From a virus (taxonomy: Duplodnaviria; Heunggongvirae; Uroviricota; Caudoviricetes): DNA of 50,105 bases. The DNA is taken from the IMG/VR virus record IMGVR_UViG_2630968414_000007. One strand, given 5' to 3'. Position 1 is the first letter of the stretch; each line of letters starts with the position of its first letter. Below, piece after piece: positions 42,001-45,000 of this stretch. A program made the position numbers.

Positions 42001-45000
42001 CTCATGATGTTTTTTACCCAGAACGAATCCCGCTGGAGACGCCCAAACATTTCACAAATTTGTCTGTGAGTTCTGCCATCCAGCATCCGCATTGTCCGCA
42101 CGTCATTGGCCCATGCAGTCCAGTTGGGTTCTTTCGGTCTCGTGATCTCGCCATCATCGCTGGCCGCCTGCTCGTAAAGACTCACGATTCGTCCCCAGAT
42201 CCACTGTGCGCACACCAAATCTTCCTGACTTCCCCACTGGCGTTTTTTCGCACTGAACACAACCGCGTCAGGGTGTCGGGTTAAAAAATTCTGTTCAGCC
42301 GTCTGCGGGTCCGGTTGCGAAGCGTCCGGACAAGAAGATCTTTTATCTGACGGATCAGGTTTTAATACTGACGGATTGGGGTCAATCATCGCCCCCCTAA
42401 TCGGCAGTTTGTTATCAACAGTTGATCCATCAAAATTTGACGGGTCAACCGTTGAGGGGGCAATATTTGACGGGTCAACTGTTAACGGGTCATTTTTTGC
42501 CGGGCTAATTTTTCTTTTCGGTTTATATGACTCACGCGCCGCCGCAGCAGCTGCTTCGAGTTTTTCCACATTAAGCCGATAGATATTGCTTACATTACGC
42601 CCACCGACCTTACGCTCTTCCTTCGTCAGCCAGCCCTCTTTCGCCAGTTCTGCAATAGCCGATTTCACTGTGGATTCACTTCTTGCACCGATCTGACGCC
42701 GGATAGTTTCAATGGCAGGCCATGACACGCCCTCGTCATTGCTGTAGTCTGCAAGACGGGCCATAACCGCCACCCTGGATAAGATCATGCCGGTGAAGGC
42801 GCACCCTTCCCAGACAAGACCATGAAGCTTGCTGCTCATAAAACCCCCGAACACCGTGCTTTTAGTGCATCACCACAGCATTCCCTGCCGGGCCGCCGCG
42901 ATTCATCTGGTCATACAAAACAACCGCTGACGCAACAAAATCATCGACATCCTTCACCAGCCGATCCCTCCGTTCGACGATCTCACGGTAATATTCAGAA
43001 CTGTGGCTGCGCATACGGGCCACCAGCAAAGGCGGCATCGCCTTTTCGATCGCCGGTAACAGAGCCTGCATTTTTTCAACAGCATCAGGGGTGTCTTTAT
43101 CCAGCCAACGGAAAATTTTCTGGGTATTACGGGCCAGGGCTTCCGGATGGCTGTCGTCATACAGTTCCGGGAACGTCATTCCCAGCTCGAAATACGCTTT
43201 GGTAATTTTCGCAGCCGGTACTTTTTCGCCGTCCGGATGCGCCCAGACATTCATCGCCATGCGGATGTGTTCATGCTTGATTTTCATGAATCAACTCCAT
43301 CAGATAAGCATGCACTACAATCACCTTCAGCATGAACTACATGTGTTTGCCCCAAACGAATGCCGCTCGCATACTCAGGCCAAATAAGCTCCCAATCATG
43401 GGGTCGTAGCTCCGCCCTACTTACTTGGCCTTCCGTCGCAGATTCGATCATAAGGGCGCGGGTTGGAGATATAGCTGTTCGTCCAGACGCCATTTGCGAT
43501 AAGTAAGATGGCGATACACCAAGTCTGGCCGCGAATTTCTTAGCATCACCAACCCTTAATGATTTAATAAACTCTTTTAATGTCATACCTTCCTCGGTTT
43601 AGTGTTTTTTTGCGAGTTTAGTGTTTAATAAACCATTAAGTCAAGTATTTGCTTGTTTAGTGATTACTAAAGATAATTACCACATGCAAAAAAAAGAAAT
43701 TCGCCGTTTACGTCTCAAGGAGTGGTTTAAAGATAAAACTCTGCCACCCAAAGAGAAGAGCTACCTATCTCAACTAATGAGTGGGAGAGCCTCGTTTGGA
43801 GAAAAGGCTGCCAGAAGAATAGAGCAAACATACGGGATGCCGGAAGGGTATCTGGATGCGGAATACGCAGAACAACCGGGGGGTTCTCCACCACATGCAG
43901 GGTTAACGTCTAATCAACTGGAATTATTGCAGATTTTTTCAGCCTTCCCTGAGGATGAGCAACGCCAGATAATCAGCGAGTTAAAGCAGAAAAAAGAATC
44001 AATGGAAGATCTCATAGCGAGATGGATTGCGGCGCAAAAATGCCGCCGCGCCTGAGTTATAAAACCGGAGGAAACATGAATAGAGCCCTTTCACCAATGG
44101 TTTCTGAATTTGAAACCATTGAACAAGAAAACAGTTACAACGAATGGCTGCGTGCGAAAGTAGCAACGAGCCTTGCAGATCCGCGCCCAGCAATTCCCCA
44201 TGACGAAGTTGAGCGCAGAATGGCAGAACGCTTTGCTAAGATGCGCAAGGAACGGAGCAAGCAGTAAAATGTTACCCGTGTTATGGCTTGAAAGCGCAGA
44301 TACCGACCTAGATGATATAACTAGTTATATTGCTCGTTTCGACATAGATGCGGCTGAACGCTTATGGCAGCGATTAAGGGGTTGTGTGCTGCCGTTATCC
44401 GAACATCCGTATTTATACCCACCAAGCGACAGAGTACCTGGCTTGCGTGAGATTGTAGCCCACCCTAACTATATAATTCTATACCGCGTAACAACATCAA
44501 GCGTTGAAGTAGTAAACGTGATCCACGCAAGACGCCAGTTTCCCTAACTTTCACTACCAATAGAAACATAACAACCGCAACGACTTTATCAAAAGCGTTG
44601 TGTTTGTTATGTCCCGCGGTTTAGTTTTTACTTGACTTAAGTTTAATGTTTATTAAACTAAAAATACCAACCCACCCCGCCCCACAGAACGCAGGGAAAT
44701 ACTTCGAGTTACCCGGCAGTGGTCAGGGGTTAAGTAGCCAGCCCGAGGCGTATGAACATGACGGCAGGGTTCAACTTTAATAACTATGCAGCAGGTTTTT
44801 GTTCCGCTACCCCGGCGTTAAGGGGAAACAGAGGGTTTCTCAGTGGGCGAAGTCAAACATCAGAATGGAAGGCATCCCGGGATCGGCAAAGAAGCAGCAA
44901 TGGCGCTTTATATTGACATCAGCGCCATTGCAGGACAGGTAAGAGTTATCAGAGCGGTAACTAAGCGGTATGCGCCTTTACTTCAGAAAGTCTCTGGTGA

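Follow-up and report, generated by a model that had tools for sequence, protein, structure and literature searches.

A toxin-antitoxin pair carried behind the repressor gene in the immunity region of prophage CP-933P

In a 50,105-nucleotide stretch of DNA from a virus of the Caudoviricetes (IMG/VR record IMGVR_UViG_2630968414_000007; hereafter the window), minus-strand genes for a Cro-like and a CII-like regulator (ydaS and ydaT) diverge from a plus-strand run of repressor, antitoxin and toxin genes (paaR2, paaA2 and parE2), which is followed by a hairpin and a second promoter with operators. We assign this region, with high confidence, to CP-933P (Sp12), a cryptic lambdoid prophage of Escherichia coli O157:H7, where it forms the immunity region and carries the three-component toxin-antitoxin (TA) operon paaR2-paaA2-parE2; that confidence is a joint one, covering the identity of the locus, its published regulation and the addiction role proposed for the pair. 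The DNA at 42800-45300 matches, with 100% identity, the CP-933P/Sp12 prophage region of many E. coli O157:H7 chromosomes. PaaR2, PaaA2 and ParE2 are each 100% identical to PDB sequences over every native residue, and because of this identity a chance layout is excluded. Compared with paaR2-paaA2-parE2 of CP-933P in EDL933 (Hallez et al. 2010; Jurenas et al. 2021, PMC8630535), the locus is the same, with no detectable difference, and the match extends to the 97-bp operator region (OR), the PL933P promoter and the operator of YdaT. The annotated surroundings are those of a prophage, namely Q, RusA, hokD, replication genes of O-like and DnaC-like type, and the immunity region; further out lie ydfC, dicB, an exonuclease gene, an excisionase gene (xis) and a decayed integrase gene (int) adjoining ynfA.

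The locus, its regulation and its analogy with lambda cI-rexAB are already published, together with structures of all three proteins, and paaA2-parE2 has been said explicitly to replace rexA-rexB (Prolic-Kalinsek et al. 2023, PMC9986795). What we add is small: relatives whose lack of the pair shows it to be an insertion, the same layout in heteroimmune relatives, the module in phage Evi, and counts across E. coli genomes. A preliminary description of the raw sequence had proposed the order Cro-like gene, operator/promoter region, repressor, antitoxin, toxin and second promoter, and had likened it to lambda OR-cI-rexA-rexB-OL. Every element was found at or next to the place it had been given, and the parallel with lambda is borne out by the two published studies (PMC8630535, PMC9986795). 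The range given there for the TA pair, 43587-44665, does enclose the pair; it also takes in the repressor gene, and the Cro-like gene falls just outside its start. A reader with nothing but raw sequence arrived at a genuine architecture that experiments had verified, which makes the locus a useful test of such scanning.

The repressor switch

The repressor gene paaR2 (43684-44055, plus strand) was placed by PDB identity and encodes a CI-like prophage repressor of 123 amino acids that starts MQKKE, an N-terminus confirmed by protein sequencing (PMC8630535). Residues 1-66 are identical to PDB entries 7nkv/8c3k and 8c3l, deposited as 'Phage repressor protein CI'. An N-terminal helix-turn-helix (HTH) domain is followed by a DicA-like C-terminal domain, of which residues 72-119 match the NCBIfam DicA model at 1.4e-06, under that model's cut-off. 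A Pfam search of PaaR2 returned no family match and no S24 peptidase domain; PaaR2 likewise has no autocleavage motif, does not respond to mitomycin C and is not SOS-inducible (PMC8630535). It has been described as the analogue of CI (PMC8630535), and the switch works like CI/Cro, yet PaaR2, lacking an S24 domain, falls outside the CI/LexA family.

Divergent from paaR2 on the minus strand, ydaS (43284-43586; 100 amino acids; Pfam YdaS_toxin 3.3e-12, HTH_3 6e-07) encodes the Cro-like repressor, identified as the analogue of Cro (PMC8630535). Next to it, ydaT (42862-43287, minus strand; 141 amino acids; Pfam YdaT_toxin 2.8e-10) encodes a CII-like activator of the PRE933P promoter; YdaT is an analogue of CII, not a toxin (PMC8630535). 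RefSeq still names it 'toxin YdaT family protein', despite this published CII-like, non-toxin role. The high-affinity YdaT operator OM, TTGATTTTCATGAATCAA, lies at 43277-43294 in the PRE933P region at the ydaS/ydaT junction, where it is the single exact match to TTGATTN6AATCAA within the whole window; both the motif and its position have been footprinted (PMC9986795).

Between ydaS and paaR2, the OR region (43587-43683) is exactly 97 bp long, as is the paaR2-ydaS intergenic region of the published locus (PMC8630535), and holds divergent promoters and operator repeats. A promoter scan placed PR933P at 43644..43615 on the minus strand (TTGACT-18-TAAACT). PRM933P was read from the sequence on the plus strand as TTGCTT (43649-43654), a 17-bp spacer and GATAAT (43672-43677), and the start predicted from these hexamers, the A of the ATG at 43684, is consistent with the published leaderless transcript. 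Both promoters have been mapped by 5'-RACE; transcription from PRM933P begins at the paaR2 ATG itself, which leaves the transcript leaderless, like that of lambda cI (PMC8630535). Repeats of GTTTAGTG start at 43597, 43616 and 43655, and these three are the only exact copies in the 50-kb window, every one inside the 97-bp region. Repeats of the family GTTTAGTGnTTAnT number three in the interval that parts the divergent genes and two at the second promoter.

That second promoter, PL933P (44632-44659, plus strand; TTGACT-16-TAAACT), has hexamers identical to those of PR933P. The promoter scan and the repeats together delimit the OL operators and PL933P to 44619-44659 on the plus strand, with repeats of the OR family at 44619-44632 and 44641-44654, as the preliminary description had foreseen. 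The window therefore holds divergent repressor and Cro-like genes around a short stretch in which promoters overlap and operators repeat, as well as a second operator set at the leftward early promoter (OL/PL), both features of a lambdoid switch.

Published footprints of PaaR2 and YdaS cover overlapping operators with the half-site consensus GTTTAGTAA; both proteins repress both PR933P and PRM933P, PRM933P is activated at low PaaR2, and the locus takes up bistable, heritable expression states (PMC8630535). PL933P, with OL1-3 downstream of parE2, is repressed ~100-fold by PaaR2 and YdaS (PMC8630535). By the mechanism established in published work on an identical sequence, PaaR2 is made from the leaderless PRM933P transcript and represses PR933P (ydaS-ydaT) and PL933P, stimulating its own promoter at low levels and repressing it at high ones. 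YdaS competes with PaaR2 for the shared operators to give a bistable switch, and YdaT, by activating PRE933P at the ydaS/ydaT junction, opens a second route into the operon.

Set against lambda OR-cI-rexA-rexB-(t-imm)-OL/PL, the locus shares the gene order, the orientations, the leaderless repressor transcript, cargo co-transcribed 3' of the repressor gene, repressor operators that recur at PL, Cro-like and CII-like partners and a bistable switch. It differs in that there is no sequence homology to CI, RexA or RexB, and in that PaaR2 lacks the S24 autocleavage domain and SOS inducibility. The operators here are 18-bp palindromes with direct-repeat character, four of them in OR (PMC8630535), and the cargo is a TA pair where lambda has a sensor/ion-channel abortive-infection pair. 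Its likeness to lambda lies in architecture and logic and not in ancestry.

The PaaA2-ParE2 pair and its relatives

Profile searches returned a TA family for each of the two small proteins. The antitoxin gene paaA2 (44076-44267, plus strand; 63 amino acids), preceded at ~6 nt before its ATG by a GGAGG Shine-Dalgarno sequence, matches Pfam PaaA2 PF21217 at 1e-19 (70.7 bits against a cut-off of 27) and NCBIfam TA_RelB_antitoxin at 5e-24, and its product is 100% identical to PDB 3zbe/5cw7. No ribbon-helix-helix, ParD or HTH domain was found in PaaA2 (Pfam, E <= 0.01). The toxin gene parE2 (44269-44547, plus strand; 92 amino acids) matches Pfam ParE_toxin PF05016 at 1.9e-16 (60.9 bits against a cut-off of 23), and its product is 100% identical to PDB 5cw7 chain B. 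A RelE-type mRNase was considered for ParE2 and rejected: the RelE/StbE model TIGR02385 scored 21.4 bits, under its cut-off of 27.9, and the ParE model scored well above its own. The earlier proposal of a ParD-like antitoxin with a ParE/RelE-like toxin thus holds for the ParE part, is inexact for the antitoxin, which belongs to the PaaA2 family and has no DNA-binding domain, and falls away for RelE. In RefSeq, PaaR2 is labelled 'hypothetical protein' and PaaA2 either 'hypothetical protein' or 'RelB family antitoxin'.

The three genes are closely packed. A separate HTH regulator gene, paaR2, lies upstream in the same orientation and ends 20 nt before paaA2, and a single base separates the paaA2 TAA (44265-44267) from the parE2 ATG (44269); the coupled stop/start of the preliminary description is accordingly tight, with no overlap. 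A plus-strand scan of the paaR2-paaA2 interval found no sigma-70-like promoter or terminator, so nothing detected there would isolate the pair from the repressor transcript. The scanned region held 6 promoter-like sites against 3.1 +/- 1.8 expected, and one of them, inside parE2 (44288-44316), was treated as chance rather than as an internal promoter, given its poor -10 element, GATGAT. The arrangement is consistent with co-transcription of paaR2, paaA2 and parE2. Earlier work, as cited in PMC8630535, reports the operon organisation, down-regulation of the operon by PaaR2 itself, induction of the SOS response and nucleoid association by ParE2, and degradation of PaaA2 by ClpAP/ClpXP. For the identical sequence, PMC8630535 and the work it cites also report that the three genes are co-transcribed, that ParE2 is toxic and that PaaA2 neutralises it.

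Downstream of parE2, a strong hairpin with 22-nt arms (44566-44612, plus strand) folds at -25.1 kcal/mol (z = -4.8), and 0 of 200 shuffles were as stable. Heteroimmune relatives carry canonical hairpin-plus-T-run terminators at this position, and the hairpin is the probable end of the repressor-antitoxin-toxin transcript, an analogue of lambda t-imm. On the minus-strand side it is followed by TTCTATTGG. The hairpin may be bidirectional, shielding parE2 from antisense transcription out of a minus-strand zinc-ribbon gene.

Both the layout and the likely history of the pair emerge from comparison with relatives. Three heteroimmune relatives (L004, L005 and L006) have ydaT-ydaS, a divergent repressor-antitoxin-toxin run, a terminator, PL and a dicB-type early-left operon. 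Their repressors are 30-34% identical to PaaR2, with the similarity concentrated in the C-terminal domain, which resembles that of DicA; their Cro-like proteins are 16-25% identical, and the operator repeats differ at both OR and OL. Antitoxin and toxin, by comparison, are 62-68% identical to PaaA2 and ParE2. The layout is that of paaR1-paaA1-parE1 type loci (CP-933M and relatives), and these three relatives may be paaR1A1E1 itself. In Tritos, 666R9 and pPE4, which have no pair, the repressor gene is followed directly by the terminator, PL and a conserved leader. Because these pair-less relatives run repressor-terminator-PL-leader, the pair appears as an insertion between repressor gene and terminator, which supports the insertion hypothesis raised in PMC8630535.

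The module is also present in a deposited phage genome. Escherichia phage Evi (LR597642, 40 kb) carries ydaS, paaR2, paaA2 and parE2 at 4698-5961 with 98.4% DNA identity; all three open reading frames (ORFs) of the module are intact, and ParE2 is 100% identical, though parE2 is unannotated there. If viable, phage Evi would offer a less decayed context than cryptic CP-933P in which to study the module. Across complete E. coli genomes, paaR2 at >=95% identity occurs in 593 of 5426 and the pair at >=95% also in 593 of 5426, equal counts that suggest constant linkage of the repressor gene with the pair.

Relative to canonical ParD-ParE systems (RK2, Vibrio cholerae parDE2, Caulobacter ParDE1), the pair has in common the ParE fold, with weak PDB matches of ParE2 to 3kxe, 6x0a and 5ceg, and an antitoxin that neutralises by wrapping the toxin. 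It departs from them in that the autoregulating ribbon-helix-helix ParD antitoxin is absent and regulation is delegated to a separate repressor, with PaaR2, YdaS and YdaT as the regulators, and in that ParE2 did not bind GyrA59 and reportedly does not inhibit gyrase (review).

Addiction and the competing explanations

We infer that paaA2-parE2 acts as an addiction module that entered between repressor gene and terminator and that penalises loss or replacement of the immunity region. In the published work paaA2 and parE2 are carried on the repressor transcript. PaaA2, an intrinsically disordered antitoxin without a DNA-binding domain, wraps and neutralises ParE2 and is itself degraded by ClpAP/ClpXP; ParE2, a ParE-fold toxin, associates with the nucleoid and induces the SOS response. 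Loss of the locus lets PaaA2 decay and ParE2 kill the cell (post-segregational killing). Experimental evidence comes from a mini-F plasmid, itself unstable, that was stabilised by the locus, as expected of addiction (PMC8630535). Among the functions that the preliminary description had offered, prophage or plasmid stabilisation is the only one with experimental support.

Several points weigh against this account. Stabilisation was seen on the mini-F plasmid and not for a prophage in the chromosome, and during steady-state growth ParE2 activity was undetected in either expression state (PMC8630535). The hairpin taken as the end of the operon lacks a T run directly 3' of its stem, so that its terminator activity is a deduction, and the co-occurrence of 593 with 593 genomes compares totals only, not matched genome by genome.

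The same lack of detectable toxin activity in both states would suit a pair that is a purely selfish hitchhiker, kept by addiction alone with no gain to prophage or host. That the carrier prophage is cryptic and that the pair looks inserted, by comparison with relatives that lack it, point the same way. Against it, the arrangement persists in heteroimmune lineages whose TA proteins have diverged to just 62-68% identity, and also in the deposited genome of phage Evi, a persistence that suggests long-term retention with the repressor. We regard pure selfishness as possible but rather unlikely, and note that present data do not separate it from prophage stabilisation.

The position of the pair, in the rexAB slot between repressor gene and PL, invites a defensive role like that of Rex: infection would shut off host transcription or activate proteases, PaaA2 would decay, and ParE2 would abort the infection and so protect lysogens. 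Prophage defence genes, BstA being one, are known to gather in this slot (PMC8585504), PaaA2 is unstable (ClpAP, ClpXP), and the operon is expressed during lysogeny. BstA of Salmonella prophage BTP1 is itself an accessory gene directly 3' of a prophage repressor that is expressed in lysogeny; it differs from the present locus in being a single-protein abortive-infection system with a DNA-based self-immunity element, not a TA pair, and has no homology to the locus (PMC8585504). No defence system was recognised when the five immunity-region proteins were scanned with PADLOC, and none of its models matches PaaR2, PaaA2 or ParE2. In sequence the pair is unrelated to RexA and RexB, since Pfam returns only the PaaA2 and ParE_toxin families and the likeness to RexAB is positional; a survey of the literature on PaaA2 and abortive infection, by titles and abstracts, found no published phage-challenge test; and post-segregational killing is the sole demonstrated phenotype. 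An anti-phage role of this kind strikes us as improbable. We give a similarly low probability to the related idea that, besides acting in addiction, PaaA2-ParE2 is a functional replacement of RexAB, a repressor-coupled abortive-infection system that would be set off as a superinfecting phage allows the labile PaaA2 to decay, and whose toxin has a target other than the classical GyrA site; only position, lysogenic expression and antitoxin instability point to it.

The original 2010 view, that the locus is a free-standing three-component TA system in which PaaR2 is only the DNA-binding half of an antitoxin that has been split and does not serve as a phage repressor, accommodates a PaaA2 without DNA-binding domain, down-regulation of the operon by PaaR2 and three genes that travel together (by equal genome counts, not matched genome by genome), but is largely refuted and in our estimate most improbable: PaaR2 is encoded where cI/dicA would stand, divergently to a Cro-like gene, and has a C-terminal domain resembling that of DicA, PL has further copies of its operators, both PR933P and PL933P are repressed by it, one state of the bistable switch requires it, and relatives without the pair keep a repressor gene at the equivalent place. 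The sequence makes testable the role of a TA pair coupled to a prophage repressor, whether in stabilising the immunity region or in phage defence, and the identity of the ParE2 target.

The early-left leader and other features of the window

Downstream of PL933P, a non-coding stretch at ~44667-44830 on the plus strand (core ~44675-44772) starts within ~10 nt of the predicted PL933P start. This leader is near-identical in heteroimmune relatives whose operators and repressors differ, and recurs in the sequences L004-L009 and L010-L175. Its core motif, TAAGTAGCCAGCCNGAGGC (44731-44749, plus strand), is found in prophage regions of Serratia, Pectobacterium, Symbiopectobacterium, Arsenophonus, Superficieibacter, Shigella and Escherichia and in >=120 viral contigs. 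About 17 genomic matches would be expected by chance for a motif of this length, and the few that fall beyond Enterobacterales seem to be of that kind. Of 5426 complete E. coli genomes, 3752 carry the element, some with as many as 7 copies.

Independent energy-minimised folds of divergent lineages converge on one architecture for this leader: an outer helix, a long bulged hairpin whose 15-nt loop (CAAUACnnnGAGUUA) is invariant, a pair of small hairpins and an invariant GAACAUGA segment, this last part reading UAAGUAGCCAGCCYGAGGC...GAACAUGA. The three loop-proximal pairs of the hairpin alternate between G-C and A-U with no alignment freedom. With 47 sequences aligned by MAFFT on sequence alone, 78% of cells are paired, and sliding the partners lowers this to 20-49%; the covariation score is 0.230 (0.04-0.09 with slid partners), with compensatory change in 14 of 27 pairs, for a structure that was itself derived from the sequences used in the covariation test. 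None of 500 shuffles reached the observed paired-cell percentage, doubly-changed-cell count or covariation score. RNAalifold on the MAFFT alignment called only 8 pairs, 7 of the 8 invariant and none with compensatory change, and the folding energy of the whole leader was no better than that of shuffled sequences (z = +1.08).

Rfam searches in gathering and E-value modes gave no match to the leader bar a spurious miRNA match on the hairpin, RefSeq has no annotation at the element, and a full-text literature search for the core sequence turned up nothing but a fish paper on another subject. HK022 has a PL promoter and operators homologous to those of Tritos and 666R9; because the sequences diverge where HK022 putL starts, the element occupies the putL position. 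Homology to putL was considered and is not claimed, as the similar part is a helix strand in put and a loop here. In Arsenophonus prophages, the element is followed by boxA (CGCTCTTTAAC) and a boxB-like hairpin. A reasonable hypothesis is that the element works in cis as part of the early-left operon's leader RNA, with a role in antitermination, processing or stability. Such a leader RNA may be new, and may hold more interest than the TA pair.

Annotation conflicts 3' of the PL leader, where 44843-45199 (plus strand) competes with 44978-45184 (minus strand). RefSeq has a 66-amino-acid zinc-ribbon protein there on the minus strand (ECs_2282 family), and we find a 68-amino-acid ORF with weak zinc-ribbon matches in Pfam. 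The Evi record instead gives a plus-strand hypothetical protein (L002 6257-6613), inside a 137-amino-acid ORF that overlaps the zinc-ribbon gene.

Short islands at 77-95% nucleotide identity are common to the window and the otherwise dissimilar pPE4 and 666R9, at 43264-43303, 45708-46042 and 46470-46504. They fall in the YdaT operator/PRE region, in the DicF region with the stretch upstream of dicB or kil, and in a 35-nt piece before the exonuclease gene, and they look like conserved regulatory sites or mosaic joints. Actinobacillus phage vB_Apl-pPE4 (PP818812), recorded with Actinobacillus pleuropneumoniae as its host, carries a lambdoid early region of the E. coli type, with ydaT, genes for a Cro-like protein and a DicA-like repressor, kil and exonuclease VIII, and shares these nucleotide islands with the window, which indicates either a wide host range or a host assignment that deserves a check.

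Two minus-strand replication genes adjoin the immunity region, one O-like (41877-42854) and one DnaC/IstB-like (41130-41870), both reported as upstream of ydaT/ydaS in operon order. At Rfam gathering thresholds, the PL operon contains the small RNA DicF (45832-45883). The same thresholds returned a sok antisense RNA adjoining hokD, STnc100, three phage tRNAs and an ALIL frameshift pseudoknot; coordinates for these remaining features are listed as 38812-38986, 34701-34873, 35650-35896 and 3777-3893. The tRNAs are annotated Ile, Arg and Arg in the matching record. The pseudoknot belongs to an IS3-family insertion sequence, which in strain 4276 sits elsewhere, at the equivalent of window position ~30100.

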